DNA of 53,157 nt from an uncultured Candidatus Saccharibacteria bacterium (lineage in GTDB: Bacteria; Patescibacteriota; Minisyncoccia; UBA6257; GWB1-50-10). How positions within the stretch are numbered: position 1 is the first letter of the stretch; each line of letters begins with the position of its first letter. Under the pieces are notes generated by a model, which saw only the letters and a program-made list of their open reading frames with translations, had not been told where the DNA came from and did no database searches. Both the position numbers and the translations under genes were made by a program. Of the stretch, positions 3,241 through 50,914 are shown in pieces. The stretch spans positions 1 through 53,157 of the forward strand of contig CAYXNB010000002.1 in assembly GCA_964466475.1 (NCBI GenBank). Reading direction: 5' to 3'.

Positions 3241-3262
3241 ATTAACATCTATAATAAAACAC

Positions 3263-5316: not shown

Positions 5317-6621
5317 TCAGAGACCCGCGATTTCCCTAAACTGCCGGACACCGGCATGGAGTTTCTCCGTGATCACGGGCAGATGAGGCACCGTGAAAGC
5401 GTCAGGCGAACCAACCGCTCTGCCGGTTAGACACACCGCCGTAAGTTCATCACGGCCGATCACGCCTTCCTGAACCAAGCGAATGTACCCAGCAAGCGTT
5501 GTACCGCCCGCTGGTTCAACCGCGATGCCCTCAGTGGCAAAGAGGACCTCCATCGCCCGGAGAACCTCTTCGTCAGACGGAGAAACTCCCATCCCACCGG
5601 ATTCGCGAACCGCCCGAACCGCCGTCGGCCCATCCGCCGGCGAACCGATAGCAAGAGCGCTCACTATCGTTTTTGGAGTCCGCACCGGACGAATCTCGCG
5701 AAACCCGCCCCGAATAGCATCCACGATCGGTGAACAACCGGAAGGTTGCGCGACGTGCAGTCGACACGACGCGACGTCCACCAAACCGAAATGTTCGAGA
5801 TCGCGAATGGCACGAGAAACACCACGAATTAGAGTTGCGCCCGCGACAGGCAGAACGACGTGCTCTGGCAAGCGGCCGCCAAACTGGGCGAAAAGTTCGA
5901 AGAGAATCGTCTTCGCGCCCTCGGCGTACCACGGACGAAGATTCACGTTGACGAACGCCACGCCGCCATCTTCTGCGCCAGCGATAAGCCCGCACAGAGT
6001 ATTCACATCATCGTAGGTCCCGTCAACCAGGATAACGAGACCGCCGAACGAAGTGATCGCCTGGATCTTGTGTGCCTCAAGCGAGCGCGGCACAAGAACA
6101 AAGGCGGGAAGATTGAGGGCCTGGGCCTGAGCAGCAACGGCACGAGCGAGATTGCCCGTACTCGCGCAACCAAAAGCCCTCCAACCCTGCTCAAGTGCCG
6201 CGCTGAAAGCAACGGCAACGACCCGATCCTTGTATGAACCGGAAGGCAGATTCGAGGAGTCAAGCTTCAGAAAGAACGTACCGGGAAGAACGCCCAGCGC
6301 GCGACCGAGTTCGTCAGCGGGGTGAAGCGATGTGCCGCCCGATTCACGACCAACCGCAAGTTCGTTGATCGGCAGAAACGGCAAGGCCCGCTCCAGCGCC
6401 GAAAGTGACGTATCAAACAGACGCTCTTTCACGGCAGTCGACGACAGTCCGGTAAAATCGTACCCAATTGCAAGCGGAGCGAAGCACCGCTCGCACGAAT
6501 AACGATTCCGCTCAATGGAGAAGCTTGCCTCGCACTCCAGACAAACGAGGCGAGAAACGAACACAGAGAAATCCTTTCCAGAAATTGTAAATGTGCGGAA
6601 GTGAGGTGCCTTCCTCCCCAT
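5317..6621 (-). CDS. thrC: Threonine synthase-like PLP-dependent enzyme with N-terminal zinc ribbon
   Basis: CLECEASF...SCERC zinc ribbon and the SGSYKDRV PLP-lysine motif; the length and glycine-rich loops fit the ThrC family. Confidence 0.65.
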   Translation of the reverse strand: MGRKAPHFRTFTISGKDFSVFVSRLVCLECEASFSIERNRYSCERCFAPLAIGYDFTGLSSTAVKERLFDTSLSALERALPFLPINELAVGRESGGTSLHPADELGRALGVLPGTFFLKLDSSNLPSGSYKDRVVAVAFSAALEQGWRAFGCASTGNLARAVAAQAQALNLPAFVLVPRSLEAHKIQAITSFGGLVILVDGTYDDVNTLCGLIAGAEDGGVAFVNVNLRPWYAEGAKTILFELFAQFGGRLPEHVVLPVAGATLIRGVSRAIRDLEHFGLVDVASCRLHVAQPSGCSPIVDAIRGGFREIRPVRTPKTIVSALAIGSPADGPTAVRAVRESGGMGVSPSDEEVLRAMEVLFATEGIAVEPAGGTTLAGYIRLVQEGVIGRDELTAVCLTGRAVGSPDAFTVPHLPVITEKLHAGVRQFREIAGL

Positions 6622-6649
6622 CGGACGAAAGCACCCATCTCCAGCCCAT

Positions 6650-9064: not shown

Positions 9065-10522
9065 CTAATTTCCGGGTCCGATAACACGAAGCGCGTCATT
9101 GCTCCGCACGACCGCGTATACCCGATTATCCTCAAAATCAACTCCCGCCGCATCCTGCGGATAATTGAATGAACTGATCTGAGAGATAGATTCAGGGTCC
9201 CCAACGTCAAGCACGAGAAGTTCAGCAGTAGAAAGCGAAGTGGCGAGAAAGACGTATCTGCCGATCGCAACAATGTCATTCACGCTTCCGGAAACCAGAT
9301 AAGATCCGTACGGCGTAATAGCGGAACTCGAAGCCGCGTTTAACACAAAAAGCCGCGCGCTTGTCCCGAAAAATATCTTGGTGGGACCAACCGCGTACAC
9401 GCTCCTGCCGGCCCCGGAATCGCTCTCTCCCTGCAAAGAAAACGACCCCGAAAGAACGGGAGATGCGGGGTTCGAAACGTCAAAAACCATAAACTCTTCC
9501 CCCGCCTTTTTTGTGGCAAGATATGCGCGCGGACCCAAAACGTGCACATCGCCAACCTCGGCTCCGATATCTACGCTCCCCAAAACAAGAGGATTCGAAG
9601 GCGACGAAACGTCAATAATAACAAATTCGTCAATGGCACCCCCTGCCCTGCGTCCCACATACGCAAGCGTTCCGGAAAGAAAAACGGAAACCGCGTCCTC
9701 AGCACCGGAAAAATTCAGAGACCCGGCCTCCGAAATGCCGGAAGGGTTGGAAACATCGAGAACAATAAACTCTTTCGAGTTCGAGGGGGAAGCAACATAC
9801 GCGTATGTAGAGGTAACCGCGAGCGAATTCAAAGAGTCGCCGGTATTAAACTCTCCGATTTGCGAAGGATTGACGGGATCGCTAACGTCAAAAACTGTAA
9901 ACGAGGCGCTGTTGCCCGCGCGCGTTGTCGTGATATACGCCCGGTCATTAAAAAGAGCAATGTCCGTTCCCTGCCGACCCGAAGGAGATACGTCTTCGGA
10001 ACTTATGGTCTCGGGGTGCAGCCAATCTCCGGAAAGGCCGGAATCCTCGCCTCCCCCGGGAGCGCCGCCGGACTCCACAGCATCCTTCCATCGGCTTACG
10101 ATGGTGGGGATCTGAACAAAAAGCGCGCGCTCCGAATCCGCCTGCCAAAGAACCCGCACCAAAATTTCTTTCCGAAAATCATCAAGATCCGTAATCACAA
10201 CACTTCGTATAAATCCGCTCTCTTCATCCGGCAAAGATTGAAACGCCCACGAGCTTGTTGAAACAATAAGTCCGTACGTGCCCGCGATAGCGCCCTCCCA
10301 GTCTAAAAAAACAAGCGTCGCAGCAGCGGCTGCGCCCTCTTCCGCGAGCGCCTGCGCACGGATGGTATGAACGCGATCCTGGTACACGCTCGCTCCCCCG
10401 ACAACAAAAAAAACACCAAAACTGATTCCCAACGCAAGAAGCGCGATCCCCACAAGCGCTTCCGCGAGGGCCTGACCGGACTCACCCGATATATGTTCAC
10501 CAAAAAACCGCTCCATAGGCAT
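9065..10522 (-). CDS. Pilin-like N-terminus fused to an LVIVD-repeat beta-propeller (candidate pilus tip adhesin)
   Basis: SG/QALAEALVGIALLAL (E at +5), followed by at least 6 repeats of the type FTVFDVSDPVNPSQIG, FIVLDVSNPSG, FVIIDVSSPSNP, FMVFDVSNPASP and LLVLDVGDPES. Confidence 0.75.
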   Translation of the reverse strand: MPMERFFGEHISGESGQALAEALVGIALLALGISFGVFFVVGGASVYQDRVHTIRAQALAEEGAAAAATLVFLDWEGAIAGTYGLIVSTSSWAFQSLPDEESGFIRSVVITDLDDFRKEILVRVLWQADSERALFVQIPTIVSRWKDAVESGGAPGGGEDSGLSGDWLHPETISSEDVSPSGRQGTDIALFNDRAYITTTRAGNSASFTVFDVSDPVNPSQIGEFNTGDSLNSLAVTSTYAYVASPSNSKEFIVLDVSNPSGISEAGSLNFSGAEDAVSVFLSGTLAYVGRRAGGAIDEFVIIDVSSPSNPLVLGSVDIGAEVGDVHVLGPRAYLATKKAGEEFMVFDVSNPASPVLSGSFSLQGESDSGAGRSVYAVGPTKIFFGTSARLFVLNAASSSAITPYGSYLVSGSVNDIVAIGRYVFLATSLSTAELLVLDVGDPESISQISSFNYPQDAAGVDFEDNRVYAVVRSNDALRVIGPGN

Positions 10523-10940
10523 TCACGCTTACGCTGTCAACCTGCTCATTGCCGCGAAAAATAACCCACCCCGCCGCCCCCAAAGGCAGTCCGGAAACAG
10601 GAGAAAATACGATCTCGGAAGGGCCGGAAAAAGACAGAAGCGAAGATCGATCATGCGTTTCATCGTACCGCACATCCCGCCCTGCATAAGAACTGCCGCG
10701 AAACACCACGAACGAATCAGGTTGTATGGAAACTCCATGCGCGCGCCCCCCGACGTTCGCAAATGAAAGCCGCTCCGCCTTTCGCAAAAGATCCACGAAG
10801 CGCTTACCTTCGGAACGCAGAGAAAAATCCGCGTACGCATTTGAAAGCAATGGCCCGCCAACACCAAAAAGCACGGCAAGAAGAGCAGTCGCAAGTACCG
10901 CCTCTATGAGCGTAAACCCGGTCCGTGATTCGTAATTCAT
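10497..10940 (-). CDS. Minor pilin-like protein (GspH/FimT-like)
   Basis: MNYESRTG/FTLIEAVLATALLAVL. Start moved to the internal ATG at 10940. Confidence 0.7.
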   Translation of the reverse strand: MNYESRTGFTLIEAVLATALLAVLFGVGGPLLSNAYADFSLRSEGKRFVDLLRKAERLSFANVGGRAHGVSIQPDSFVVFRGSSYAGRDVRYDETHDRSSLLSFSGPSEIVFSPVSGLPLGAAGWVIFRGNEQVDSVSVNAYGAVFW

Positions 10941-10962
10941 GCTTCGTAATTCGAAGTTGCCG

Positions 10963-12012
10963 CTAAAAACTTGGCGTGGAAATTTTATAAATCGGCAAAA
11001 TAATGGAAATCGCGACAAATCCGACCAAAAGCCCCATGGTAAGAAGGAGGAACGGCTCCAGAACCGAAGTAAGATTTTTTACGTTGTCATCAACTTCTCG
11101 CTCATAAAATTGGGCAAGATATAAAAGGTTTTCCTCCAAATGTCCGGTGGTCTCTCCCACTCGAATCAAATTAATGACCATGGGAGGAAAACGCCGTTTC
11201 CGCCGCCGCATATATTCCGCGATCTGCTCCCCCTTGCGCACATACTGGGCTGCGGCAAGAATTTCGCGTTCATAACACATATTGCGCAGACCGCCTGCGG
11301 CAATGGTAAGCGCATCAATGATATTCACTCCGCTTCGCAACAAAAGCCCGAGCGAACGCGTAAAATCAACCATGGTAACTCCCAAAGAAACCTTGGAAAG
11401 AACGGGAACATGAAGTAAAAGAAGGTGGGAAAAAAAACGCACCCGTCTCACGCGCAAAAGAAGGTGTAAAAAAACAATGAAAAGAAAGACGCCGCCTGCG
11501 GCATACGCGCCATACTCCGAAGCAAAATTCACCAACGCGATGAGGAAACGCGTCGTCGCGGGCAACTCCACCTGGAGATCGCTCAAAACGGGCAGAATCT
11601 TCGGTAAAACGAAAAACACGAGAAAGAGAGTGATACCGACCGTGGCGAATAAAATAATGACGGGATAAACCAGGGCCGCCTTCACTTTCGAATGAAGTTC
11701 TTTTTTCTTTTCCAACTCCTCCGCGAGATGAAGTAAGCTTTCGGAAAGATTGCCGCTCTTTTCCCCGATCTCAACAACGCTGACAAAAAAGGATCCGAAA
11801 AGACGCGCGTGCCTGCGAAGGCCCTCGGAAAGAAATTTGCCGTTTTGAATATCATCGATAAGTTCTCTGATAATGGAGCGGAAAAAACGTGACTGCGCCT
11901 GCTCCTCGATAAGACGCAGACCGTCCACAAGCGCGAGCCCCGTCTGAATCGTCAAGTGGAGATGTCTCGCAAAATTGATCCGTTCCTGCAACGATATGGA
12001 AGAAAAAAACAT
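10963..12012 (-). CDS. pilC: Type IV pilus platform protein PilC (GspF family)
   Basis: Two GspF-like repeats with 3 TM segments and the typical ending PLLLLTMGLLVGFVAISIILPIY. Start set after the pilB stop. Confidence 0.85.
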   Translation of the reverse strand: MFFSSISLQERINFARHLHLTIQTGLALVDGLRLIEEQAQSRFFRSIIRELIDDIQNGKFLSEGLRRHARLFGSFFVSVVEIGEKSGNLSESLLHLAEELEKKKELHSKVKAALVYPVIILFATVGITLFLVFFVLPKILPVLSDLQVELPATTRFLIALVNFASEYGAYAAGGVFLFIVFLHLLLRVRRVRFFSHLLLLHVPVLSKVSLGVTMVDFTRSLGLLLRSGVNIIDALTIAAGGLRNMCYEREILAAAQYVRKGEQIAEYMRRRKRRFPPMVINLIRVGETTGHLEENLLYLAQFYEREVDDNVKNLTSVLEPFLLLTMGLLVGFVAISIILPIYKISTPSF

Positions 12013-12019
12013 AATATAG

Positions 12020-13279
12020 TTATTCCTGCGAAACCCGGAGGACTTCCTCGATGGTAGTAATTCCCTGAAGCGCCTTTTGAAACCCGTCCTCAAGCATGGT
12101 CTGCATTCCCGCCCGCCGCGCGGCCTGCTTTAGCTGGTCGGCATTGCCGTGCTGCATGATAAGCTGGCGTATGGCCTCGTCCACCTCAAGCACCTCGTGA
12201 ATCCCGATCCTCCCCTTGTATCCCGACTGCCCGCACGCCGCACATCCTGCGCCAACGTAAAACACCTTCCGTCCCTGCAGCACGTCTTCGGAAACCAAAT
12301 TTTTCAAAGTCGCATACTCATCTTCGGTAAGCTGTTTCTCCTTGCGGCAATCCAGGCAAATGCGCCGCACAAGTCGCTGATTAACCGCAACATTGACCGT
12401 CGAAGCAATGAGGAAAGGAGGGACGCCCATATCCAAAAGGCGGGGCAGGGTAGTTGCCGCATCGTTCGTGTGCAGAGTCGACAAAAGCAAATGCCCGGTC
12501 ATTGCCGCGTTTACGGCGATATTCGCGGTCTCGTTATCACGGATTTCTCCAACCATAATGACGTTGGGATCCTGACGTAAAATAAAACGAAGGCCCTCGG
12601 CAAAAGTAAGGTTCGTCTGTTTGTGCACCTGGATCTGATCAATGCCCGCGATCGAATATTCTATTGGATCCTCGATGGTGATCACGGAAACCTCTGGCCG
12701 GTTCAGTTCCCGGAGCACGGCGTAAAGCGTAGTCGTCTTCCCCGCACCCGTAGGCCCGGTAACCAGGATCATGCCGAACGGCCGGTGAATCGCCTTTCGG
12801 ATTTTGGCAAGGTTGCTTTCTGAAAATCCGATAGTGTCAAGAGTGAACCCAACTGCCTGATCGGCAAGAATACGCATCACGCAGTTTTCGCCATAATAAG
12901 TGGGCGCGATAGAAACGCGGATATCTACGTCTCCCCGCTTGCCGATATGCAAACGAAACCGCCCGTCCTGCGCCGCCTGATGCTCGTCCGTGCGAAGCCC
13001 GGAAATAACCTTGATGCGCGTAATAATTTCTGAGTGAATTTCTTTGGGAAAGGAAAAGGCCTCCTGCATCACCCCGTCCACGCGAAACCGCACACGAATC
13101 TTGTCTGGGTCCGGATCAATGTGAATATCGGAAGCCCGCATCAAATACGCGTATTCAACCAAGGCGTCCAAAATCCGAATGATGGAAAGTTCCTCGGTGT
13201 TTTCAAGCGCTTCCGCAATAAAAATCCGCAACTCCTCCGTCCTTTCCCGATCCTCTTTTATTATTTGTGTTTCGTCCAT
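12020..13279 (-). CDS. pilB: Type IV pilus assembly ATPase PilB (GspE family)
   Basis: Walker A VTGPTGAGKTTTLYA, Asp/His boxes and the tetracysteine motif CLDC...CAAC. Confidence 0.9.
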   Translation of the reverse strand: MDETQIIKEDRERTEELRIFIAEALENTEELSIIRILDALVEYAYLMRASDIHIDPDPDKIRVRFRVDGVMQEAFSFPKEIHSEIITRIKVISGLRTDEHQAAQDGRFRLHIGKRGDVDIRVSIAPTYYGENCVMRILADQAVGFTLDTIGFSESNLAKIRKAIHRPFGMILVTGPTGAGKTTTLYAVLRELNRPEVSVITIEDPIEYSIAGIDQIQVHKQTNLTFAEGLRFILRQDPNVIMVGEIRDNETANIAVNAAMTGHLLLSTLHTNDAATTLPRLLDMGVPPFLIASTVNVAVNQRLVRRICLDCRKEKQLTEDEYATLKNLVSEDVLQGRKVFYVGAGCAACGQSGYKGRIGIHEVLEVDEAIRQLIMQHGNADQLKQAARRAGMQTMLEDGFQKALQGITTIEEVLRVSQE

Positions 13280-19997: not shown

Positions 19998-21014
19998 CTA
20001 CCGAATTTCCGCGTATGGCTGGAATGTTTCCGAAGTCCGAATCGGCAACTCTTCCACCCGAGAAACCTTTTCGTCCCGAATGAAGACGCGAAGCATGAGC
20101 CCCCGCATGGTCTCTTCCGAAAAACTCTGGTCAAACACAAAATTCCCCAAACTATACGCGATCCATCCGTCCTTATATTTCTCAACTTCCTGTACCACGT
20201 GCGGATGATGTCCGACTACCAAATCCGCCCCGGCATCTATAATCGCGCGAGCAACTTCTCTTTGTGCGACACTCGAACTCGTTGCGTACTCCTCGCCCCA
20301 ATGATACGAAACTACGAGAATATCCGCCTGCCCGCGCGCCTCCGCGACGCGTTCCAAAACATACTCCAAACGCGCATCGCTCACTCCGGGCCGCTCTTCC
20401 CCGGCAACCAATCCCTCAGGATACAAATTCGTATATGCCAAAAAACCAACTCGAATTTCACGAGCCGAAGGCGAGTTAATTTCTACAAATTTCGTTTCAT
20501 TCGCCTCTTCATAATTTCTCCCCGCCCCCACGGGCGCGATATTATTTTCTTTCAAAAGCGTAATCGTATCCTCCAGAGCATCCTGACCCCAGTCCATAAT
20601 GTGATTGTTCGCGAGAGACAAAACATCAAACCCCGCGAGCCGAAGTCCTTCGATAACCCGCGGATCCGCGCGAAAAGAATATATCGAGCCCTGATTCGCT
20701 CCGCGCGAAGAAATAGGACCCTCAAGGTTTCCAAATGTAATGTCCGCAGAGGCAAGCGTGTCCGCTATCAACCGAAACGGATACGCGAAATCACTTTCCC
20801 TTTGCATCGCGGCTCCCACGCTCCTTGAGAGCATAATATCCCCGACAAAAAGCAGTTCCACCTCTTTCGTAGATTCGGATAATTCGTAGTTTCGGAGCGG
20901 TTCTCTTTGTAGATTCGGAAGATTCGTGGTTTCGGAGCGGTTTAAAAAATACAAAACCCCCGAAAACCCGAAGGATACAAGTGAAAGTAAAAAAACAAAA
21001 ATCCAATACCTCAC
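19998..21014 (-). CDS. capA: CapA-family metallophosphatase (poly-gamma-glutamate synthesis-like)
   Basis: VGDIML, LANNHIMDWG, VSYHWGEEY and VVGHHPHVVQ. An N-terminal TM segment is followed by a region encoded by a tandem nucleotide repeat. Confidence 0.8.
   Translation of the reverse strand: MRYWIFVFLLSLVSFGFSGVLYFLNRSETTNLPNLQREPLRNYELSESTKEVELLFVGDIMLSRSVGAAMQRESDFAYPFRLIADTLASADITFGNLEGPISSRGANQGSIYSFRADPRVIEGLRLAGFDVLSLANNHIMDWGQDALEDTITLLKENNIAPVGAGRNYEEANETKFVEINSPSAREIRVGFLAYTNLYPEGLVAGEERPGVSDARLEYVLERVAEARGQADILVVSYHWGEEYATSSSVAQREVARAIIDAGADLVVGHHPHVVQEVEKYKDGWIAYSLGNFVFDQSFSEETMRGLMLRVFIRDEKVSRVEELPIRTSETFQPYAEIR
20865..20940 (-). repeat. Two imperfect tandem units (about 35-40 nt) with four TTCGGA half-sites, inside the capA 5' region
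   Basis: tttcgtagattcggataattcgtagtttcggagcgg followed by tttgtagattcggaagattcgtggtttcggagcgg. The 25-mer at 20872-20896 is identical to 14558-14582. Confidence 0.85.
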
Positions 21015-22027
21015 AAAAGACCGATAACCTTCTCCGTGTGCCTCACCAGCGTAGACACATACCCCGCCTCATTGTCATACCAGGAAAGCACCTTGACCAA
21101 GTTCCCGTCCACCACGCGGGTAAAGGAAAGGTCCGCAATAGCGCCGTGCTTCTGTCCCACGATATCCGAAGAAACAACCGGATCTTCCGTAGTCGTAAAA
21201 ATTCCCTCCCACTTCGCCGACTTCGACGCCCTGCGCAAAATGTCGTTCACCTCCTCCGCCGTGGTCTTGCGCTTCGCCACGAAAGTAATGTCCGCGATAG
21301 ATCCCGCGATCACAGGCACGCGCATCGCGATGCCGTCAAACTTGCCCTGCAACTCCGGCAACACTCGCCCAACCGCAATAGCCGCGCCCGTTGAAGACGG
21401 GATAATGCTGTGCGCCCCCGCCCTTCCGCGGCGGAAGTCGCTTCCCTTTACCGTATTGTCCACAATGCTTTGTGTGGCGGTATAAGCATGCACCGTGTTC
21501 AGCATCGCTTTTCGTATTCCCGGATCCTCGCTCAAAATCTGCATGAGCGGAGCCGAAGCATTGGTGGTGCAAGATCCGTTTGAGGTCAAAACCGCGCCCT
21601 TCAAATCCGCGTCATTGATGCCGATAAGCACCGTCTTCCCGTCCGTGCCGTCCTCGTCTTTTGCCGGAGCAGTAATGATGACCCGCCTCGCCCCGGCCAT
21701 CAGATGCACCTTCGCTTTTTCATATGATTCAAAAGCTCCGGTTGATTCCAAAACAAGGTCAACGCCGAGCCGCTTCCACGGCAGTTTCATAGGGTCCGGT
21801 TCGCGCAAAAACTGGATCACGACCTTCCCCACGCGCAGATTCCCCTCTTCCACCGCGACTGCTTCGGCGAATTTTCCGTACACCGAATCGTATTCCAAAA
21901 GATACGCCAAACTCTCCGGAGTTCCCAAATCGTTTATCGCGACAATGTTGATATTTTTGTTTCCGATCGCTTCCCGTAAAAATAATCTGCCGATTCGTCC
22001 GAATCCGTTTATTGCGATGTTTGCCAT
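21011..22027 (-). CDS. gap: Glyceraldehyde-3-phosphate dehydrogenase
   Basis: INGFGRIGR and the active-site SCTTNASAP motif. Confidence 0.95.
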   Translation of the reverse strand: MANIAINGFGRIGRLFLREAIGNKNINIVAINDLGTPESLAYLLEYDSVYGKFAEAVAVEEGNLRVGKVVIQFLREPDPMKLPWKRLGVDLVLESTGAFESYEKAKVHLMAGARRVIITAPAKDEDGTDGKTVLIGINDADLKGAVLTSNGSCTTNASAPLMQILSEDPGIRKAMLNTVHAYTATQSIVDNTVKGSDFRRGRAGAHSIIPSSTGAAIAVGRVLPELQGKFDGIAMRVPVIAGSIADITFVAKRKTTAEEVNDILRRASKSAKWEGIFTTTEDPVVSSDIVGQKHGAIADLSFTRVVDGNLVKVLSWYDNEAGYVSTLVRHTEKVIGLL

Positions 22028-25764: not shown

Positions 25765-27192
25765 ATGCTAATCCACGACTCTCTTTCCGGTAAGAAAAAA
25801 GAATTGGGAAAAAACAAAAAACCTATCAAACTCTTTGTATGCGGCCCCACGGTCTACGACGATTCTCACCTGGGACATGCTCGCACGCAGATTGTTTTTG
25901 ACATCATTGTCCGCTACCTCCGCGCCCGAGGCTGGAAGATAACGTATCTCCAGAACATCACGGATGTTGATGATAAAATCATTGCGCGAGCAAAACAGGA
26001 AAACACGCACCCGCTCGAGCTGGCAAAAAAATTTGAAAAAAGGTATCGCGAAGACCTGAAAGTGCTCGGGGTGAATCAAATTGATACGCTCGCCCGCGCC
26101 TCAGATTTCATCCCTCAGATCACAAAACAGGTTCAGACTCTCGTAAAAAAAGGATATGCATATACAATCGAAGGAGAAGGGATTTATTTTGACATCAAAA
26201 AATTCAAAAACTACGGCAAACTCGCCCGCCGATCCGTGGAGCAGGCCGAAGACGGCGTTTCGCGCATCGACGAGGCAGACAAAAAAAGAAACAAAGGCGA
26301 CTTCTGTTTGTGGAAATTCGTTCCCATCCCTACTGGCTATACCCTAATGGCTAGTGGCCCTACTCTCGTAAACGGCGAACCCGCGTGGAAAAATCGGTTC
26401 GGCTGGGGAAGGCCCGGCTGGCATATTGAAGACACGGCGATCACCGAACATTTCTTCGGACCCCAATACGACATCCACGGCGGCGGCCTTGATCTGAAAT
26501 TCCCCCACCACGAAGCCGAAATAGCCCAGCAGGAAGCCGCCTCCGGCAAAACCCCGTTTGTAAAAATCTGGATGCACGCCGGGCTTCTTCGCGTAAACGA
26601 TCAAAAAATGTCCAAAAGCACGGGCAACTTCATCACCATCAGGGAATTTCTAAAAGAAAACGACGCGCCCTCCCTCCGCTGGCTCGTTCTTTCCCACCAC
26701 TACCGTTCCCCCGCGAACTATTCCCAAGAACTCCTCAAAAACGCGAAGGAATCGATCCGAAGCATCCGGGATTTTTTGGAAAAACTCGCCTTCGTGGAAA
26801 AAAATCAAAAAAAAGCGAAAATAAAAAATTTCGGAGATCAGATAAAAAAAGCCGAGAAGGAATTCCACGCCGCAATGGAAACGGACCTTAATACCCCCCT
26901 CGCGCTGGCCGCGCTCTTTACCCTTATGCGCGAAGCAAACGCAAACATGTGGCTCCTTTCCAAAAAAGACGCCCGCGCCGCAAGCCGGTTTGCGCAACAA
27001 ACCCTTGCCTCCCTTGGTTTTGCCATAAAATCCCGAAAAACCCCGAAAAATGTCGAAAATCTGGCCCGCGCGCGCGAGTTATCCCGAGGCAGTAAACACT
27101 TTATCCAAGCCGACGCATTGAGAAAAAAAATAGAAGGACTAGGATATATGGTAGAGGACACTCCAATCGGACCTCTGATTTTGAAGAAATAG
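25765..27192 (+). CDS. cysS: Cysteinyl-tRNA synthetase
   Basis: [16 protein letters not shown] (HIGH) and KMSKSTGN (KMSKS). Confidence 0.95.
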
Positions 27193-27203
27193 GAGACGAA
27201 CAA

Positions 27204-27432
27204 GAATCTCTCCTTATGATTGAGAAGCAACTCTCGCAGACGCGCCGGGCTTGGTCCCCGAAGGGGCCGGCGCGTCGAGAGCGTAGTGGGTTCATTCGTC
27301 CGGGGGATGAATGAACAGGCGACAAACCTTGTGCGATAGAATGTCGCCCGGGAGCGAAGAGTCGCTGGAAGATTCGTTCGTCCGGGGGACGAACGAATGA
27401 CACCCGGTGCTTCGAAACATAAGGAGAGATTC
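27204..27432 (+). ncRNA. Family-A structured element, copy 1 (unknown class)
   Basis: A 15-bp closing stem (27204-27218 with 27418-27432). A 70-nt core is 97% identical to 51479-51548, and a conserved 3' segment ccggtgcttcgaaaca is also shared. Three extra hairpins lie in the variable region. Confidence 0.6.
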
Positions 27433-27439
27433 CGCAACT

Positions 27440-28810
27440 ATGGAACACAAAAATTTCAAACTTCCTCCCCAAGATCTGGAAGCCGAAACATCCGTCCTCG
27501 GCGCCTTGATGCTGGACAAAGACGCGATCCTGAAAATCGCGGACACGCTCGCCCCGAACGACTTCTACGCTCCGGGCCACCAAAAAATATACAAAGCCGC
27601 GCTCGAACTCTTTGAACAGGGCAAACCCATTGACGCCCTGACCATCCAGGCGCGCCTGAAGGAAAAAAGCGAACTGGAGGGTGTGGGCGGGGCGTCATAT
27701 CTGTCGGATCTCATTGAATCAGTTCCCTCTTCCGCGCACATCACGCACTACGCGGACATCGTGCGTGAAAAACGGGTGCGCCGCGACCTCCTCCGCGCCT
27801 CCTCGGAAATAAATGAAAAAGCGTTTGATCCGGAAAATTTTGAAGAAATTCTGGACGGCATCGAAAAACGCATCTTCTCCATCTCCCAGCTCTCGCAAAC
27901 GCAAAAATTCGTACATGTAAAAGACGAGCTCGCCTCGAGTTTTGAACGCTTCCAAAAGCTCCACGAAGGCGAAGGGGGGCTTCGCGGAGTGCCGACAGGA
28001 TTTTCTAAACTCGATTCTATTCTCTCCGGATTCCAAAGGTCCGACCTCATCCTCCTCGGCGCCCGCCCCTCGTTCGGAAAAACATCTCTCGCGCTCGACA
28101 TGGCGCGGCACGCGGCTCACGCGGGATTTTCAGTGGGGATCTTCTCCATCGAAATGTCCATCGAACAGATCATGGATCGTCTGATCGCCTCCGAAGCTCA
28201 GGTGCCGCTCTGGAAAATGCGCACCGGACGCCTGCGGGATGAAACCGACTTTGAACTGATCCAGCATGCTCTAGGCAAACTCTCGGAACTGAAACTTTTT
28301 GTTGACGACACCCCCTCGCCAACCATTCTCCAGATGCGTTCTATGGCGCGCCGCCTGCAGATGGAGCACGGCCTTGATCTGGTGGTAATCGATTACCTCC
28401 AACTCGTCAAACCAAGAAGCGAAGCGGCGGGCATGGTCCAGCAGGTTACGGAAATTTCACGCGGACTGAAATCTCTGGCGCGCGAAATGAACGTGCCCGT
28501 CCTTGCCCTCTCCCAGCTCTCCCGCGGCGTGGACAAGCGCGAAGGCGACAAAACTCCCCGCCTTTCGGATTTAAGAGAATCGGGATCTCTCGAGCAAGAC
28601 GCCGACGTGGTGATGTTTCTCGCGCGCAAAGACAGAGAAAACTACGGGTCGGAAAAGCACGAAGCGCTCTCGGACGAAGACCAAAATACCGTGCGCATCG
28701 TGGTGGCAAAACACAGAAACGGACCCTTGGGAGATGTAAGATTAAAATTCGACGCGGAACGCGTCTCATTCCGAAGTATCGACGAACATCATAGCAATGA
28801 TAATTTCTAA
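27440..28810 (+). CDS. dnaB: Replicative DNA helicase DnaB
   Basis: PPQDLEAETSVLGALM N-terminus and Walker A GARPSFGKTSLAL. Start moved to MEHKNF. Confidence 0.95.
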   Translation: MEHKNFKLPPQDLEAETSVLGALMLDKDAILKIADTLAPNDFYAPGHQKIYKAALELFEQGKPIDALTIQARLKEKSELEGVGGASYLSDLIESVPSSAHITHYADIVREKRVRRDLLRASSEINEKAFDPENFEEILDGIEKRIFSISQLSQTQKFVHVKDELASSFERFQKLHEGEGGLRGVPTGFSKLDSILSGFQRSDLILLGARPSFGKTSLALDMARHAAHAGFSVGIFSIEMSIEQIMDRLIASEAQVPLWKMRTGRLRDETDFELIQHALGKLSELKLFVDDTPSPTILQMRSMARRLQMEHGLDLVVIDYLQLVKPRSEAAGMVQQVTEISRGLKSLAREMNVPVLALSQLSRGVDKREGDKTPRLSDLRESGSLEQDADVVMFLARKDRENYGSEKHEALSDEDQNTVRIVVAKHRNGPLGDVRLKFDAERVSFRSIDEHHSNDNF

Positions 28811-29427: not shown

Positions 29428-30432
29428 ATGAAGCAAATTTTCACGATCATCATTCTTTCAATATTCAGCGTAAGTATAGGATACGTCCTGCGTTCGCAAA
29501 CCAACGAATACGAGGTGAGGACCGCCTCGCTCGAGCCCCCCGTAAAAAACATAAAGATGCCGGACATCGAACCGACACCCGATATCCAAAACACGGCAAA
29601 AACTCCGCCTCCGCCCGCCCCCGAACCGCAAAAACCGAAAATGACATTATCCGAAAAAATCCTCGAACAGGGCGACGCGCTTTTGGTCTCCATGGAGCAC
29701 GAAAAAGCGGTAACGCTCCAAATCAAAAACAAAACAATACCGCTGGTTTCCATTGATCCGCGAAAAAGCATCGCGATCTACGGCATTGATGTCCGCGAAG
29801 AGCCCGGCGCGATCTCCGTCACGCTCCTGCAAGACAACGAGGTCTTACAAGAAGAAAAGATAAACATTACAAAACGAAACTTTCCCGTAACCCAACTCGT
29901 CTTAAGCGACACGCAAGTGCAAGCAGGCGTGACGCCGGAAAAAGCGGCGACGCAAATAGTTCAAAACGACAACGCGAAACTCTACGAAATCCTCGACGAC
30001 CCCCTGCCCGAAATACACTTCAAAACCTCGTTCGCCCACCCCCTGCCAAGCCAAATCATCGTGGGCGGCTTTGGAAACATCAGAAAATCCGGCGAAACAG
30101 AAATCCGCCACCTGGGCGTTGATCTCGATGGAAAGCGCGGCGACCCGGTAAAAACGATTCAAGACGGCGTGGTACGCCTGACCCGCAACCTCTCAAACTA
30201 CGGCAACACAATAGTAATTGACCACGGTGCAAGCATCTTCTCCATGTACCTGCACTTAAACTCCGCGAGCGTAAAAGAAGGCGACAAAGTGGAGAAAGGA
30301 AAAACAATCGGCACAATCGGCAACACGGGCGACTACTCTCTGGACCCCCACCTCCACCTTTCTATAAAAGCAAACGGGGCCTCCGTAGACCCCATTCGTT
30401 TTATTGAAACAACACGAAAAATTCCGCGATAA
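29428..30432 (+). CDS. M23-family peptidoglycan endopeptidase
   Basis: HLGVDLDG and GNTGDYSLDPHLHLSI metal-binding motifs, plus an N-terminal TM segment. Confidence 0.85.
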   Translation: MKQIFTIIILSIFSVSIGYVLRSQTNEYEVRTASLEPPVKNIKMPDIEPTPDIQNTAKTPPPPAPEPQKPKMTLSEKILEQGDALLVSMEHEKAVTLQIKNKTIPLVSIDPRKSIAIYGIDVREEPGAISVTLLQDNEVLQEEKINITKRNFPVTQLVLSDTQVQAGVTPEKAATQIVQNDNAKLYEILDDPLPEIHFKTSFAHPLPSQIIVGGFGNIRKSGETEIRHLGVDLDGKRGDPVKTIQDGVVRLTRNLSNYGNTIVIDHGASIFSMYLHLNSASVKEGDKVEKGKTIGTIGNTGDYSLDPHLHLSIKANGASVDPIRFIETTRKIPR

Positions 30433-30437
30433 ATTTC

Positions 30438-30456
30438 GCCCCGCCATCGGCGGGGC
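30438..30456. terminator. GC hairpin between convergent genes
   Basis: gccccgc catcg gcggggc. Confidence 0.55.
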
Positions 30457-30473
30457 TAATTTCTGTTGTATTT

Positions 30474-30773: not shown

Positions 30774-30832
30774 AGTAAAGAAAATACACGAAAAAAAGAA
30801 TTAGGTCAACTCGACATTAGATTCGCATTAAA

Positions 30833-31062
30833 GGAAACTTCGCCGCAGTGTTCGAGCGGATTCTGAGGCCGTTTTGGCATGGTCTCCGACCCGCCGTCCG
30901 CCGACTGGCGGAGGCGGGGAGGAGCAAAACGGCCGAGGCCTCGGAGCAAGCGGCTGGGCCCAATCGTCCGGGGGACGATTGGGCGGGCAAGCAACCGAAG
31001 TTATAATCCGTGCTTGCCCGGGACCGAGCGAGAATGAGCGAGGACACTGCGGCGGAGTTTCC
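30833..31062 (+). ncRNA. Family-B structured element, copy 1 (unknown class)
   Basis: An 18-bp closing stem (30833-30850 with 31045-31062) encloses at least 4 internal helices. Differences from the 50244-50452 copy are compensatory. G-U pairs favour the + strand. Confidence 0.65.
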
Positions 31063-31070
31063 GTACCAGC

Positions 31071-48089: not shown

Positions 48090-50225
48090 ATGCTTCCTCT
48101 CGATCTCCCCATAGAAAATCTGCCGCGCGTCAGCAAATATTTTGTTTCCCGTTTCAAAAAAATGGGGATAAAAACAATCCGCAATCTTCTCTACCACTTC
48201 CCCGCGCGCTACGACGACTTCTCCGAAATCTGCGAGGTCATAAATCTCATTCCCGGCCAAGTCGCGACCATCCAAGGCAAAGTAAAAACGATAAAAACAC
48301 GGCAGGCGTGGAAACGCCGCCGCATGCAAATTACCGAGGTAAAAGTTGGAGACGATACGGGCGAAATAGAAATCATCTGGTTCAACCAGTCCTATGTGGC
48401 AAATCAACTAAAACCGGAAACGCCGGTCAGCATTTCCGGAAAAATATCCCAGTCCGGCGAAAAACTCCAGCTCAAAAACCCGACCTTTGAAATCCTCCAT
48501 GAATGGAAGGGCGAAACAACGCACACGGGCAAATTAGTCGCCAAATATCCGGAAACCCAGGGAATGACCTCAAAAGGCATCCGCCACTTCATGGATATAG
48601 TCCTCCGTCAAATGCCGAAAATCGAGGAACCGCTCCCCGAAGAAATCTTACGAAAACTGGGGCTCCAAAACATTCAGGAAGCCCTGCGTCAAATCCACCA
48701 GCCGGACACAATAGAAAACGCAATCCAAGCGCAAAAACGCTTCTCCTTTGAAGACCTCTTTTATCTCCAGATTTTCAACCTTAAGGAAAAACAAAAACTG
48801 AAAGAAGAAAACGCCCCGGAAATCCCCGTTGACATAGAAAAAATAAAATCGCTCCTCCGGGCCCTGCCCTTCGAACTTACGACCTCGCAAAAAGCCGCGC
48901 TCTGGGAAATTGTGCGGGATCTAGGGAAATCCCACCCCATGAACCGCCTCCTGCAAGGCGACGTCGGCTCCGGCAAGACCATCGTCGTGGCGCTCGCCGC
49001 CCTCCTTGCCGCCGAAGAAGGATTTCAGGTCGCCTTCATGGCCCCGACCGAAATCCTGGCCCGTCAGCACTTCGAGACCATGAAAAAATTTTTTCCCGAA
49101 ACCGAAGAAGGCCTCGCGCTCCTCACCTCCTCTGAATCCCGCGCGTATTACGGCGAAAATCTGGAGCATGCGGCGAAAAAACCGGAACTGAAAAATGAAA
49201 TAGAGGCCGGAAACATAAAAATCGTCTTCGGCACCCATGCCCTGATTCAAAAAAATGTTTCATTCCAAAACCTCGCCTTGGTAATTATCGACGAACAACA
49301 CCGCTTTGGCGTCCGCCAGCGCGCCGAACTTGCCCGCCGCTCCATGCCGCATTTTCTATCTATGTCAGCAACCCCGATTCCCCGCACCCTCTCTCTTACG
49401 CTCTGGGGCGACCTGAATCTCTCGCTCATAAACGAACTCCCGAAAAACCGCCACCCGATCACCACAAACGTAGTACCTCCGGAAAAACGAAATGAGGCAT
49501 ATGCGTTTATCCGCGCCCAAATCAAAGAAGGCCGCCAGGCATTCGTCGTCTGCCCGCGTATCGAGCGAAGCGAAGATACGCGTCCCGAGCAAAGTGAGGG
49601 ACATCCTTATGCGTGGATATCCGATATCCAAAAATTAGACGTAAAATCCGTAAAAGAAGAATTTGAAAAACTTACCAAGCACGTCTTCCCCGACATTCGG
49701 GTTGCCATGCTCCACGGCAAGATGAAGCCGAAAGAAAAAGAAGAAGTCATGCGAAACTTCAAGGATGGCAAGTCCGACATCCTGGTCTCCACCTCCGTTA
49801 TCGAAGTGGGCGTGGACGTGCCAAACGCCACAATCATGATGATAGAAAGCGCGGACAGATTCGGCCTAGCCCAACTCTACCAGTTTCGGGGCCGCGTAGG
49901 CCGCGGAGCGCACAAATCATACTGCCTGCTCTTCACCGAATCCTCCTCCAAATCCACGGCGGCCCGCCTGCACGCAGTCGAAAAAGCGAAAAACGGAATG
50001 GAACTCGCCGAATATGACTTAAAAACCCGCGGCCCCGGAGAATTTTTGGGCGAAGTGCAGACCGGCATGCCCGATCTCGCGATGAAAGCCCTCAAAAATC
50101 CCGATCTCGTAAAAGAAGCGCGCCATCTCGCCGAAGATCTTCTGCAAAAAGATCCGAAGATGAAAACCCACCCCCTCCTTCGCGAACATATACAAAAATT
50201 CCAAACCCGCATCCACTGGGAGTAA
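48090..50225 (+). CDS. recG: ATP-dependent DNA helicase RecG
   Basis: Wedge/OB N-terminus, GDVGSGKT, DEQHRFGV and QFRGRVGRG. Confidence 0.95.
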   Translation: MLPLDLPIENLPRVSKYFVSRFKKMGIKTIRNLLYHFPARYDDFSEICEVINLIPGQVATIQGKVKTIKTRQAWKRRRMQITEVKVGDDTGEIEIIWFNQSYVANQLKPETPVSISGKISQSGEKLQLKNPTFEILHEWKGETTHTGKLVAKYPETQGMTSKGIRHFMDIVLRQMPKIEEPLPEEILRKLGLQNIQEALRQIHQPDTIENAIQAQKRFSFEDLFYLQIFNLKEKQKLKEENAPEIPVDIEKIKSLLRALPFELTTSQKAALWEIVRDLGKSHPMNRLLQGDVGSGKTIVVALAALLAAEEGFQVAFMAPTEILARQHFETMKKFFPETEEGLALLTSSESRAYYGENLEHAAKKPELKNEIEAGNIKIVFGTHALIQKNVSFQNLALVIIDEQHRFGVRQRAELARRSMPHFLSMSATPIPRTLSLTLWGDLNLSLINELPKNRHPITTNVVPPEKRNEAYAFIRAQIKEGRQAFVVCPRIERSEDTRPEQSEGHPYAWISDIQKLDVKSVKEEFEKLTKHVFPDIRVAMLHGKMKPKEKEEVMRNFKDGKSDILVSTSVIEVGVDVPNATIMMIESADRFGLAQLYQFRGRVGRGAHKSYCLLFTESSSKSTAARLHAVEKAKNGMELAEYDLKTRGPGEFLGEVQTGMPDLAMKALKNPDLVKEARHLAEDLLQKDPKMKTHPLLREHIQKFQTRIHWE

Positions 50226-50243: not shown

Positions 50244-50452
50244 AGAAACTCTGCCGCGGTGTTCGAGCGGATTCTGAGGCCGTTTTGGCATGGTCTCCGA
50301 GCCGAGCGAGGAGCAAAACGGCCGAAGCCTCGGAGCGAGCGGCTGGGCCTAATTGTCCGGGGGACAATTAGGCGGGCAAGATACCGAAGTAATAAATCGA
50401 ATCTTGCCCTGGACCGAGCGAGAATGAGCGAGGGCACTGCGGCAGAGTTTCC
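50244..50452 (+). ncRNA. Family-B structured element, copy 2
   Basis: Same architecture as 30833-31062. Closing stem is 50244-50261 with 50435-50452. It has a shorter apical hairpin and compensatory substitutions in three helices. Confidence 0.65.
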
Positions 50453-50467: not shown

Positions 50468-50914
50468 CTACTCATATTCAATATAATGAATCGCGATCCC
50501 AAACCTCTCCGCCACGTCATGTTCCAAAACCGAAGTTGGAGAGATCTCCCACCGCGGAGCGAAAAAAGCGTCCGTGATGTGTCCGGATTCCAGAACCTGC
50601 GCCGCGAGATCCGCGTAATGCCGCGCGGCATATCCCGCCTCCTTCAGGCGCGCCAACGTCTCCAGCGTAAAGGCGTCCTGCAAAGTAAAAATCGGAAAAT
50701 GGCGCATCTCCTGTAATACTCCGGCAAGGCGGATCAGTTCTTCCCGATTATCCGGAACCCGATGCGGCCCGTCTGAAGTTATGACGCCGGAAACATACCC
50801 GATCCTCGGATAATGATATTCATGCCGGAATTTTTTAAGCGCGTGCACAATGTGCCCGTACGCATCCTCAAAATTCCGCGCAAGCCCCGCCGCGTCCCGC
50901 AAATGACTTCTCAT
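50468..50914 (-). CDS. Hypothetical protein, possibly DUF4406/nucleoside 2-deoxyribosyltransferase-like fold
   Basis: RIGYVSGVITSDGP...N.EEL resembles the YISGPM-type N-terminal motif; the assignment is weak. Confidence 0.4.
   Translation of the reverse strand: MRSHLRDAAGLARNFEDAYGHIVHALKKFRHEYHYPRIGYVSGVITSDGPHRVPDNREELIRLAGVLQEMRHFPIFTLQDAFTLETLARLKEAGYAARHYADLAAQVLESGHITDAFFAPRWEISPTSVLEHDVAERFGIAIHYIEYE

Follow-up and report, generated by a model that had tools for sequence, protein, structure and literature searches.

A structured element between cysS and dnaB is one copy of a widespread folded repeat family of ultra-small groundwater bacteria

Does a structured element in the gap between cysS and dnaB of an uncultured Candidatus Saccharibacteria bacterium regulate the gene downstream of it? 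The element lies in a 53,157-nt stretch of DNA (here, the window), and the original prediction, made from the letters of that stretch, proposed it as a cis-acting dnaB leader whose closing stem sequesters the only Shine–Dalgarno (SD)-like sequence before the gene and controls its translation. Here, we report that this element (family A copy 1) is an intergenic member of a folded repeat family that is widespread among ultra-small groundwater bacteria and had not been catalogued before; the family is carried by Paceibacteria/Patescibacteria of the Candidate Phyla Radiation (CPR) and by related groundwater bacteria.

Copy 1 has a structure far beyond chance: it folds at -120.4 kcal/mol, compared with -79.8 +/- 4.7 kcal/mol for shuffled sequences (z = -8.7), and none of 200 shuffles folds as well. 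All that had been described from the letters about the sequence is borne out (Table 1). The closing stem (P1) is a perfect 15-bp helix, the inner helices form in the minimum-free-energy fold as GAAGCA with TGCTTC and as CTCTC..GACGCGCCGG with CCGGCGCGTC..GAGAG, and three extra hairpins stand between GTAGTG and CCGG, two of which carry GUCC-GGG-GGA(C/U) tips (27290-27316 and 27372-27398). The G–U pair noted in the first of these two hairpins is present as a single pair, and the + strand is the structured strand, as proposed. A second copy in the window (copy 2) is a true homologue. It matches the originally delimited 70-nt core block at 68 of 70 positions (72 of 75 between 27214-27288 and 51474-51548) and shares the 3′ segment CCGGTGCTTCGAAACA exactly; the 38-nt core hairpin occurs twice in the window, where zero occurrences are expected. 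Copy 2 is antisense to both of its neighbours, starting 9 nt from the stop codon of a minus-strand pheS-like gene (51617-52756) and ending 14 nt from the start of a minus-strand gene at 50957-51448. A public 1.7-kb assembly contig ends at this copy.

Table 1 Features of the window that bear on the cysS–dnaB element.
Feature	Position	Strand	Basis or remark
cysS, upstream neighbour of copy 1	25765..27192	+	Translation; tRNA-synt_1e in syntenic relatives
Family A copy 1, whole element, 229 nt	27204..27432	+	Between cysS stop (27192) and dnaB ATG (27440), sense to both genes
P1 5′ arm GAATCTCTCCTTATG, copy-specific sequence	27204..27218	+	Pairs with 27418-27432; P1 varies between copies yet stays paired
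GA step 27222-27223 (opposite GA 27414-27415), then P2 5′ arm GAAGCA (partner 27408-27413)	27222..27229	+	Fold
P3 domain: CUCUC, GCA bulge, 10-bp stem, GCUUGGU bulge (27249-27255), CCCC-GAA-GGGG hairpin, GAGAG	27231..27281	+	One base differs in copy 2
Junction J3/4 CGUAGUG; family consensus CGYAG	27282..27288	+	Family alignment
Expanded P4 region: hairpins 27290-27316 and 27318-27348, branched arm 27349-27406 (inner hairpins 27353-27366 and 27372-27398)	27289..27406	+	Fold
P2 3′ arm UGCUUC, conserved CCGG(U) junction just before	27408..27413	+	Fold
P1 3′ arm CATAAGGAGAGATTC, includes SD-like AAGGAGAG at 27421-27428	27418..27432	+	Fold
dnaB, downstream neighbour of copy 1	27440..28810	+	Homologues with Pfam DnaB and DnaB_C
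Family B copy 1, related architecture with P3-like module	30826..31066	+	R1 partial match 30863-30937, E 4e-4; repeats D2, D7, D8
recG without insertion	48090..50225	+	tblastn and alignment; empty-site comparison for the in-frame copy in L089 recG
Family B copy 2	50245..50452	+	R1 partial match 50276-50325, E 9e-5
Family A copy 2, 145 nt, canonical single P4	51463..51607	+	R1 130.8 bits, E 2e-30; fold

A search with a covariance model, of the kind that the original prediction had recommended, recovered about 110 homologues from Paceibacteria (CPR) genomes and groundwater metagenomes. With nhmmer and this model (R1), 80 dnaB loci of Paceibacteria yielded 15 full copies and 80 loci from metagenomes yielded 94; on copy 1, R1 matches positions 27230-27319 (54.7 bits, E 1e-11). 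The copies span 128-229 nt, with closing helices of 13-25 bp, and share one architecture throughout. P1, the closing stem, is long and variable; a tandem G·A step and the short helix P2 follow it and lead into a three-way junction whose loops are invariant. The motifs CUCUCGGAG, GCUUGGUC and GAGAG are invariant across the family. P3 holds the invariant CUCUC-GGA motif and, in its bulge, GCUUGGUC; P4, which the family alignment identifies as the variable or insertion-prone arm, typically consists of a single hairpin with a CGCUGGAG loop, in place of which copy 1 carries its expanded region. G·A/A·G juxtapositions at the P1/P2 junction account for 180 cells across the family. Compensatory changes are found in 43 of the 51 pairs, and pairing holds in 92% of cells, a level that none of 500 shuffles (60-65%) reaches. 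The structure is thus genuinely conserved, its closing stem covaries, and the family unit is the whole stem-closed module of ~130-230 nt.

The family is spread across deep divergence (53-65% DnaB identity), and cores that are 97-100% identical between copies carry unrelated P1 and P4. A role for P1 as a guide was rejected, since its arms have no significant second match within the window. An origin of P1 by inverted duplication of host sequence is not supported: the RecG and MnmA residues are suggestive but lie on opposite arms, and in PrfB both arms are extra.

The element matches no Rfam family, a hit to which would, according to the original prediction, have removed its novelty. Rfam 15, with its riboswitches, ribozymes, 6S, SRP, Y RNA, tmRNA, RNase P, HEARO/omega RNAs and group I/II introns, was searched at gathering and permissive thresholds with the whole window, with each of the two copies and with 14 loci that carry the element. 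The region 27100-27500 gave no hit even at E <= 10, the region 51400-51700 gave only a chance match to CRISPR-DR38 (E 7.8), and the carrier loci gave tRNAs only. Compared by eye, the hammerhead ribozyme does not fit, having a 7/3/1-nt junction with CUGANGA/GAA as opposed to the 1/5/4-nt junction here. A strict three-part DNA pattern found no match in genome or viral collections; two viral matches to a looser pattern were dismissed as chance, neither being matched by R1.

One strand of the element is favoured. The strand represented by the model is the more stable one in 79 of 90 copies (p = 3e-14), and GU pairs outnumber AC juxtapositions by ~3:1 overall and by 20:3 in the P1 of copies inside open reading frames (ORFs). 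This preferred strand is the same in every context, whatever the orientation of the neighbouring gene. No replication bias is seen: measured on the strand of the element, GC skew has a negative sign for 43 copies and a positive one for 32, and coding strand usage amounts to 76.6k same and 64.2k opposite. Copies are found in either orientation to their neighbours (opp/opp 32, same/opp 19, same/same 17 and opp/same 14), and also as head-to-head doublets and nested in larger composite structures. No transposase or conserved termini linked to the family were found, and flanking direct repeats among 87 copies are chance-like, the longest being 0 nt in 42, 1-3 nt in 43 and 5 nt in 2.

About 12% of the copies lie in frame and free of stops inside conserved genes (mnmA, tgt, prfB and recG), the hosts being MnmA (six loci), Tgt (two), RF2, RecG and a membrane protein. 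All 11-14 in-ORF copies preserve the host frame without stop codons, at a per-frame chance of ~0.54, and the host genes always read them antisense to the best-folding strand. The element splits Pfam domains of the host proteins, and uninterrupted homologues lack exactly the P1-to-P1′ unit, which is read through as a loop insertion of ~48 residues. A split-gene reading of mnmA and tgt was discarded, as the unmasked ORFs run straight through the element. The reading frame through the element varies between hosts, so conservation is not at the protein level. Orthologous copies, for example in mnmA of five or six species, retain the fold while P1 diverges, which argues for purifying selection in place and thus against a dead selfish insert. 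A peptide profile of the in-ORF inserts found one 80-aa ORF, and phmmer with this ORF against 1.84 billion representatives returned itself alone; clustering and low complexity hide the inserts.

On balance, these observations suggest that copy 1 is probably an ordinary intergenic copy of a strand-specific folded repeat family, an insertion element resembling the Rickettsia palindromic element (RPE) and not a sensor serving dnaB. Such an element would be tolerated wherever no gene is broken, and its conserved single-stranded fold (RNA or single-stranded DNA of the model strand) would be the form recognised by a propagating or maintaining agent. The pairing of AAGGAGAG within P1 would be a by-product of an arbitrary P1 sequence, and any effects on the co-expression of cysS and dnaB, for example by RNase III-type processing or by way of a strong hairpin on the shared transcript, would be side effects. 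We infer the mobility of the family from its distribution only. Against this reading stand the lack of a transposase, target-site duplication and conserved termini, the retained fold of orthologous copies, the strand preference in every context and the depth of divergence that the family spans.

The RPE (Ogata et al. 2000 per PMC10969869) can be regarded as the closest analogue. RPEs are palindromic, ~150 bp long and, in nearly half of cases, fused in frame to ORFs (PMC10969869). The two have in common dispersed palindromic repeats of ~100-150 bp with a stable hairpin-like fold (128-229 nt in the family here), a placement between genes and, unusually often, in frame within unrelated housekeeping ORFs, the addition of a ~30-50-residue peptide at tolerated positions, and the lack of a linked transposase, terminal inverted repeats and target duplications. 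They differ in their hosts, which are CPR/Paceibacteria (represented by metagenome-assembled genomes) here and Alphaproteobacteria for the RPE, and the two appear unrelated in sequence. Whereas the RPE is a simple hairpin, the family has a three-way junction, invariant loops and tandem G·A steps; in addition, its closing helix is copy-specific, its frame differs between hosts, and its strand-specific covariation stays strong over deep divergence as well as within ORFs. That the family shares its descent with the RPE is very unlikely; it works like the RPE without being one.

Miniature inverted-repeat elements (MITEs) such as Correia/NEMIS and ERIC are a second point of comparison, as non-autonomous, dispersed 100-200-bp repeats that are co-transcribed with their neighbours, can be RNase III substrates and occasionally lie within genes with open frames. 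However, a MITE is flanked by target-site duplications and ends in terminal inverted repeats that are conserved among copies, whereas here the P1 termini are the most variable part, being entirely different between copies with identical cores, and there is no duplication, on which grounds assignment to this class was rejected. The family is also unlike most MITE bursts in spanning deep divergence.

Palindromic repeats that code for protein have so far passed for a peculiarity almost confined to Rickettsia. The existence in the CPR of a second family, unrelated and structurally far more elaborate, would, if true, show the phenomenon to be a recurrent one among reduced genomes, and an unusually rich set of hundreds of copies with full covariation could address how such repeats spread without a recognisable transposase and remodel proteins. 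For annotation, the family accounts for long 'structured intergenic' regions, for ~48-residue low-complexity inserts in CPR housekeeping proteins and for assembly breaks. That one strand is fold-competent regardless of host transcription, and that identical cores carry unrelated helices, point to a mechanism of recognition or renewal.

It is possible, and we put this forward tentatively, that the structured strand has a function of its own as a single-stranded nucleic acid, either as a new class of structured RNA (for example a ribozyme, a cis-antisense regulator or the scaffold of an RNP) or, equally, as a single-stranded DNA recognition structure for an as yet undiscovered mobilisation system, under purifying selection even when antisense in essential genes; P2-P3 would then be a lineage-specific, constant 'handle', while a dedicated mechanism would renew or diversify P1 and P4.

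Functional RNAs typically have tandem G·A steps and invariant loops, and a rival reading would make each copy a gene for a small or cis-antisense RNA, or a ribozyme or RNP site, expressed from the model strand and kept by selection at the host level, copy 1 being co-transcribed with cysS and dnaB. We consider this somewhat unlikely. The covariation of all helices, the invariant loops and G·A steps, the excess of G–U pairs on one strand independent of gene orientation, and the retention of orthologous copies with compensated P1 are what it would lead one to expect. The flanking space, too, is larger on the 5′ side (medians 100-175 nt) than on the 3′ side (9-74 nt), and good -10-like hexamers are in weak excess 3-14 nt upstream of P1 (17% of copies, as against 5% on the control side). 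However, mean -10 and promoter scores anchored on P1 do not exceed those of shuffles and show no positional peak for sigma-70 promoters; no U-tract signal above shuffles is seen at P1, a T-run following it in only 8% of copies; and where a copy is embedded antisense in an ORF there is no space for a promoter. The combination of identical cores with unrelated P1 and P4, the doublets, the nesting and the in-frame insertion into ORFs is how a repeat behaves, rather than a typical small-RNA gene, and no Rfam family matches.

Many copies lie just downstream of genes, which raises the question of whether the element is a host-domesticated intergenic hairpin of the REP/BIME kind, serving after stop codons as a terminator, a 3′-end protector or an insulator against convergent transcription. 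Twenty copies antisense to the gene and seven sense to it start 2-20 nt after a true stop codon, and head-to-head doublets stand between convergent genes (for example between recR and its neighbour in L052, and also in L124 and L142). The 15 nt on the 5′ side of the model strand are A-rich (37% A), giving a U-rich tail on the transcript of the adjoining gene. Still, a T-run of at least 4 occurs there in only ~20% of copies, and the window already has canonical hairpin-plus-U terminators elsewhere, for example at 30432-30470. The mRNA would carry the less stable strand, termination needs no three-way junction with invariant loops, and in-ORF copies cannot terminate. These points make a domesticated hairpin improbable. 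REP, BIME and REPIN elements with RAYT (Y1 HUH) transposases resemble the family in being multi-copy structured palindromes with inverted doublets, sites just after genes, a single strand that matters and long vertical persistence, and a GYAG tetranucleotide lies 5′ of the hairpin in both (at J3/4-P4 here, as the GTAG head in REPs). REPs, however, are 20-40 nt long and strictly extragenic, whereas the units of the family measure 130-230 nt and also lie in ORFs. A link to RAYTs was rejected: Y1_Tnp genes are present in the relatives L178, L176 and L008, none of which carries the element. The RAYT-like gene in L008 is flanked by a different, 29-nt palindrome, its own REP.

The dnaB leader of the original prediction is, given this distribution, very unlikely. 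Its structural part stands: AAGGAGAG is wholly paired within the 15-bp helix, 11 nt before the ATG, much as in riboswitch expression platforms and RNA thermometers, in which an SD-like sequence is buried in a helix before the start codon. It is the sole strong SD-like match among the 47 starts in the window, and the dnaB start lacks the TAnAAT box that precedes many other starts by 5-8 nt. The regulatory part is not supported. Unlike SD-sequestering leaders, the family has no fixed position or orientation relative to a downstream gene; copy 2 has the same fold yet is antisense to its neighbours, and the ~110 copies occupy unrelated contexts. The element is absent from the syntenic cysS–dnaB gaps of seven relatives (L001, L002 and L175-L179), and where that neighbourhood does have it, in L009 and L026, it is on the opposite strand and precedes cysS. 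In the five closest relatives, cysS and dnaB overlap or are separated by 42 nt or by AT-rich DNA of unrelated sequence, with neither element nor SD. SD sites are usually spaced less than 11 nt from the start codon, and the SD-like letters fall within the freely variable P1. The caveat attached to the original prediction, that SDs are few and the overlap may be incidental, proved apt: SD-like 4-mers at 8 of the 47 starts equal the 16.8% background, and the organism, judged by these starts, does not rely on SD sites. Because SD usage equals background, AAGGAGAG in the variable stem is most likely incidental, and because the family lies both between genes and in frame in essential genes, copy 1 is probably no dedicated dnaB switch. 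The distribution of the family thus removes the case for a dnaB riboregulator, while at the copy 1 locus alone an occlusion of dnaB initiation, incidental or even adaptive, may be possible.

The bottom strands of integron attC sites fold antisense to the gene whose stop codon the site abuts, a geometry that recurs here. A single-stranded DNA recombination site of this kind, with one folded strand through which a recombinase moves the adjacent gene, would also share with the family a folded single strand as the active form, selected regardless of the direction of transcription, stems that conserve structure more than sequence, and a position that abuts or covers the stop codon of the gene before it. 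We give this reading very little credence. The R″/R′ core sites (RYYYAAC / GTTRRRY) are absent from the ends of copies 1 and 2, and the family has a conserved centre and variable ends, the reverse of attC. Its neighbours are housekeeping genes in conserved synteny (cysS, dnaB and pheS) and not cassettes, copies lie within ORFs, and no integrase is linked.

An intron, or another kind of intervening sequence that is cut out of host mRNA, which the interruption of conserved genes at loop positions and the long helix joining both boundaries might recall, is scarcely credible, since all in-ORF copies keep the frame free of stops, the fold-competent strand is antisense to the mRNA and Rfam gives no group I or group II signature.

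Beside family A, the window holds two copies of a related element (family B; Table 1). The second of these folds at -111.9 kcal/mol on the + strand and at -98.1 kcal/mol on the - strand, and ends 15 nt before the stop codon (50468) of a minus-strand gene at 50468-50914.

Copy 1 of Family A, the element between cysS and dnaB, is closed by the perfect 15-bp stem GAATCTCTCCTTATG / CATAAGGAGAGATTC described in the original prediction, and its + strand folds at −120.4 kcal/mol, compared with −79.8 ± 4.7 kcal/mol for dinucleotide shuffles (z = −8.7). The core common to copies 1 and 2 is identical at 72 of 75 positions, both copies carry the 3′ segment CCGGTGCTTCGAAACA, and a 38-nt core hairpin occurs twice against zero expected. 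The closing stem of copy 2, GCGCAAG-G-CGGTTTTG / CAAAACCG-CTTGCGC, is unlike that of copy 1 yet equally complementary. The extra hairpins reported for copy 1 were verified as its sole departure from the family consensus, an expansion of the inner helix P4 to three hairpins; long P4 insertions are also seen in other members. The structure seen earlier is real, and its structural interpretation is supported. Rfam 15 gave no match to the window element, whether at its gathering score or with the limit relaxed to E ≤ 10.

Coordinates of features in the window and in related genome and metagenome loci (handles L001–L180)
Feature	Position	Strand	Remark
16S rRNA gene, 5′ part	1–583	−	201-nt insertion relative to bacterial SSU model
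Gene starts (examples)	1873, 3263, 21011–22027, 23029, 24700, 48090, 50914
Family A copy 1	27204–27432	+	229-nt module
Common core, copy 1	27214–27288
P4 hairpins, copy 1	27289–27406
SD-like AAGGAGAG	27421–27428		11 nt 5′ of dnaB ATG
Family A copy 2	51463–51607	+
Common core, copy 2	51474–51548
Family B, first copy	30826–31066	+	P3-like module, R1 match E 4e-4
Family B, second copy	50245–50452	+	P3-like module, R1 match E 9e-5
GUCC-GGG-GGA(C/U) hairpins	27290–27316, 27372–27398, 30959–30983, 50348–50372		~25 nt each
recG of the window	48090–50225		Lacks insert
L001, cysS–dnaB gap	9860–9999		AT-rich inverted repeats
L002, cysS–dnaB gap	385–502		AT-rich inverted repeats
L008, REP–RAYT layout	3034–3879		Jorgensenbacteria MAG
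L008, Y1_Tnp gene	3080–3805	−	IS200-like/RAYT-like
L008, palindrome AATTTTCCGAGGCGAAACCTCCGAAAATT	3053, 3614, 3832		29 nt; inverted at 3832
L026, promoter	about 60–112	−	TTGACA-N17-TATACT
L029, promoter	about 6600–6630		TTGACA-N17-TATACT
L097, inverted copies and enclosed gene	10341–12517
L124, element	5017–5157

The window organism, a Paceibacteria/Parcubacteria (CPR) bacterium, has a DnaB 74–87% identical to those of Jorgensenbacteria-like MAGs and a 16S rRNA gene with an insertion of the kind typical of CPR. Searching 80 dnaB-centred loci from GTDB genomes by nhmmer with both window copies gave six homologues, all sharing one fold. In a seven-sequence MAFFT alignment, not fitted to structure, compensatory changes occur at 43 of 51 pairs, and paired cells reach 92%, compared with 65% in shuffles (0 of 500 as high) and 36–48% in slid controls. 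R1, the covariance model built on this alignment, gave 15 full copies in the 80 GTDB loci in addition to the two window copies. A pattern of invariant motifs then retrieved 94 metagenome stretches, and in the 80 fetched as loci (L081–L160) R1 confirmed 94 copies (79 distinct), whose pairing statistics match those of the seven-sequence alignment. Viral collections yielded no Family A copies. Family A is an uncatalogued, widespread family.

The consensus begins with the closing helix P1 (13–25 bp, free sequence), followed by a tandem G·A step, P2 (4–7 bp) and one junction nucleotide. Within P3, CUCUC is followed by a GGA bulge, a free 10-bp stem, a GCUUGGUC bulge and a hairpin, and GAGAG closes the domain; CGYAG then leads to P4 (~12 bp, loop CGCUGGAG), (C)CGGU and the 3′ arms P2′ and P1′. 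Three consensus motifs were imposed by the metagenome pattern, which had no bearing on the P4 loop, CGGU or any of the helices.

The assignment of the + strand as the structured one is correct for copy 1 and general across the family, in both G–U excess and stability. On the model strand, the strand that folds as R1 describes, G–U outnumbers A–C in paired columns by 143 to 45, and G·A/A·G juxtapositions number 180, compared with about 20 for U·C. Of 90 copies, 79 fold more stably as model-strand RNA than as its complement (mean difference 6.7 kcal/mol; Wilcoxon p = 3e-14). The roughly 3:1 G–U:A–C excess recurs in every class of flanking-gene orientation relative to the element (same/same, 32:10; intergenic opposite/opposite, 22:8) and in copies inside genes (17:5).

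Copies also lie within genes for MnmA (L095, L092, L122, L126, L131 and L137), Tgt (L125 and L139), a class-I release factor with PCRF and RF-1 domains (L157), RecG (L089) and a membrane protein (L146). In unmasked sequence each host ORF continues through the element, in frame and stop-free; the apparent splitting of MnmA and Tgt genes into halves on the opposite strand arises only when elements are masked. Pfam confirms the hosts, with the MnmA HUP domain and TGT each matched in two stretches and PCRF lengthened by ~48 residues. The insert is absent from uninterrupted homologues (window recG, L050 recG and L035 prfB), and the 48 extra residues of the L089 RecG correspond to the entire P1-to-P1′ unit of 146 nt. 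Because the frame is kept and stop-free in every such copy, the sequences argue for translation through the insert rather than splicing. The encoded peptide, ..G.S.APAA..LRSR...GDQAR.ASESF.., for which Pfam has no family, is what the complement of the invariant loops encodes, and in Tgt the second half of the element is read in a different frame; conservation is therefore at the nucleic-acid level, not the protein level. In every credible in-ORF copy (11–14 among 90 distinct elements), the host gene reads antisense to the model strand. Open frames are commoner on the complement (54%) than on the model strand (33%), which accounts for part of this bias, without statistical force. In L124, a convergent 435-aa gene runs 128 nt into an element without a prior stop, acquiring a ~43-residue element-encoded C-terminal tail.

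With in-ORF copies excluded, 20 elements start 2–20 nt past the genuine stop codon of a gene to which their model strand is antisense, compared with seven in sense orientation, including window copy 1. About 10 loci contain head-to-head doublets with 15–90 nt between the copies; most of these lie between convergent genes, which places each copy antisense to the gene it adjoins. The spacer on the model-strand 5′ side is usually 70–180 nt, and element orientation shows no bias relative to GC skew or local coding strand. Family A copies show no detectable sigma-70 promoter peak, U-tract or target-site duplication. Textbook promoters lie directly past the element 3′ end, pointing away, in L026 and L029, so sigma-70-type promoters are recognisable in such genomes where present.

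Copies with 97–100% identical P2–P3 cores, among them the two window copies and those in L136, L082, L141 and L144, have unrelated outer P1 arms and P4 stems differing by several compensated pairs; among 34 pairs with core identity of at least 90%, P1 is as similar in four. Orthologous mnmA copies retain their position while P1 has diverged yet remains paired; antisense to the mRNA, its G–U:A–C ratio is 20:3. Simple drift cannot give both patterns. Gene conversion limited to the core, arm-to-arm templated repair and a mechanism renewing P1 and P4 are the candidate explanations.

Among known biology, the best match to Family A, by behaviour and not descent, is the class of Rickettsia palindromic elements (RPEs), ~150-bp palindromic repeats without recognisable transposition machinery, nearly half of which are fused in frame to unrelated ORFs (PMC10969869). 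On this likeness, copy 1 is read as an intergenic insertion of an RPE-like element, whose fold would be the element's own recognition structure. The likeness is one of behaviour: Family A carriers belong to a different phylum, and Family A differs from RPEs in architecture, being built around a three-way junction with invariant loops and G·A steps. RPEs are the closest analogue, and some features could prove categorically new. Full covariation, invariant loops, persistence at orthologous sites and strand-specific selection whatever the host transcription, even within essential ORFs, are usual hallmarks of a functional RNA and are strong in Family A. That the family is a functional RNA or single-stranded DNA element of a new kind, and not merely a tolerated insert, is a reading we regard as rather unlikely.

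Regulation of dnaB by copy 1, as originally proposed, is not borne out, given mixed contexts, relatives without the element and Shine–Dalgarno (SD) usage at background. Flanking-gene orientations are mixed across the family; copy 2 is antisense to both neighbours, which are on the minus strand: a pheS-like gene (tRNA-synt_2d + FDX-ACB) and a 163-aa gene. The cysS–dnaB adjacency is kept in the closest relatives (L001, L002 and L175–L179), whose junctions contain no R1 match and no SD. The gap is unrelated AT-rich sequence, 115–145 nt long in L001, L002 and L175 and 137 nt in L179; L178 has 42 nt between the genes, and those of L176 and L177 overlap. L009 and L026 each carry a copy upstream of cysS, on the opposite strand. 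Nor is the proposed SD occlusion supported: the SD-like letters sit inside P1, the least constrained part, and SD-like 4-mers precede 8 of 47 window starts, equal to the background of 16.8%. This fits the original caveat that most genes lack an SD, and the overlap is most likely incidental. TAnAAT boxes (TACAAT / TATAAT) 5–8 nt before the ATG at many window starts suggest widespread leaderless or very-short-leader mRNAs. The L001 and L002 gaps hold inverted repeats of AGAAATT/AGAGATT heptamers, palindromic filler of another kind at this junction.

Membership among MITEs, REP/RAYT systems, attC sites, introns or leaders each fails a defining test; RAYT-like Y1_Tnp genes in three relatives have their own 29-nt REP, without a Family A element. 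The L008 locus shows the classic REP–RAYT layout, and homologues of its Y1_Tnp gene lie two genes upstream of cysS in L178 and L176.

In L097, L117 and L150, two similar inverted copies flank a gene for a 570-aa POTRA/ShlB-type outer-membrane protein, next to a CHASE2–SpoIIE gene (domains read by eye); given this neighbour, the carriers may be diderm and outside CPR, and Family A may extend beyond CPR. The publicly assembled Logan contig L180 (1701 nt) carries the identical pheS-like gene and ends 36 nt past its stop, at the copy 2 edge; this repeat seems to break short-read assemblies. In ten loci (L090, L107, L127, L132, L120, L129, L151, L106, L082 and L048; element ± 160 nt), Family A is nested in a composite of ~290 nt that adds a 13-bp outer helix, a CCAGCGAG-loop hairpin on the upstream side and a conserved CACCGUGCCCG on the downstream side; Rfam does not match this composite, which is conserved between contigs and shows covariation. 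Family B, the second two-copy structured element of the window (~92% identity, 20-bp closing stem), contains a P3-like module, CUGAGG-stem-GCAUGGUC bulge-hairpin, plus extra hairpins. As in Family A, its + strand folds better (−111.9 against −98.1 kcal/mol), and it probably belongs to the same superfamily with another architecture. Hairpins with a GUCC-GGG-GGA(C/U) tip occur within both Family A copy 1 and Family B, with one match in 179 other loci, and look like a genome-specific module added to larger elements.
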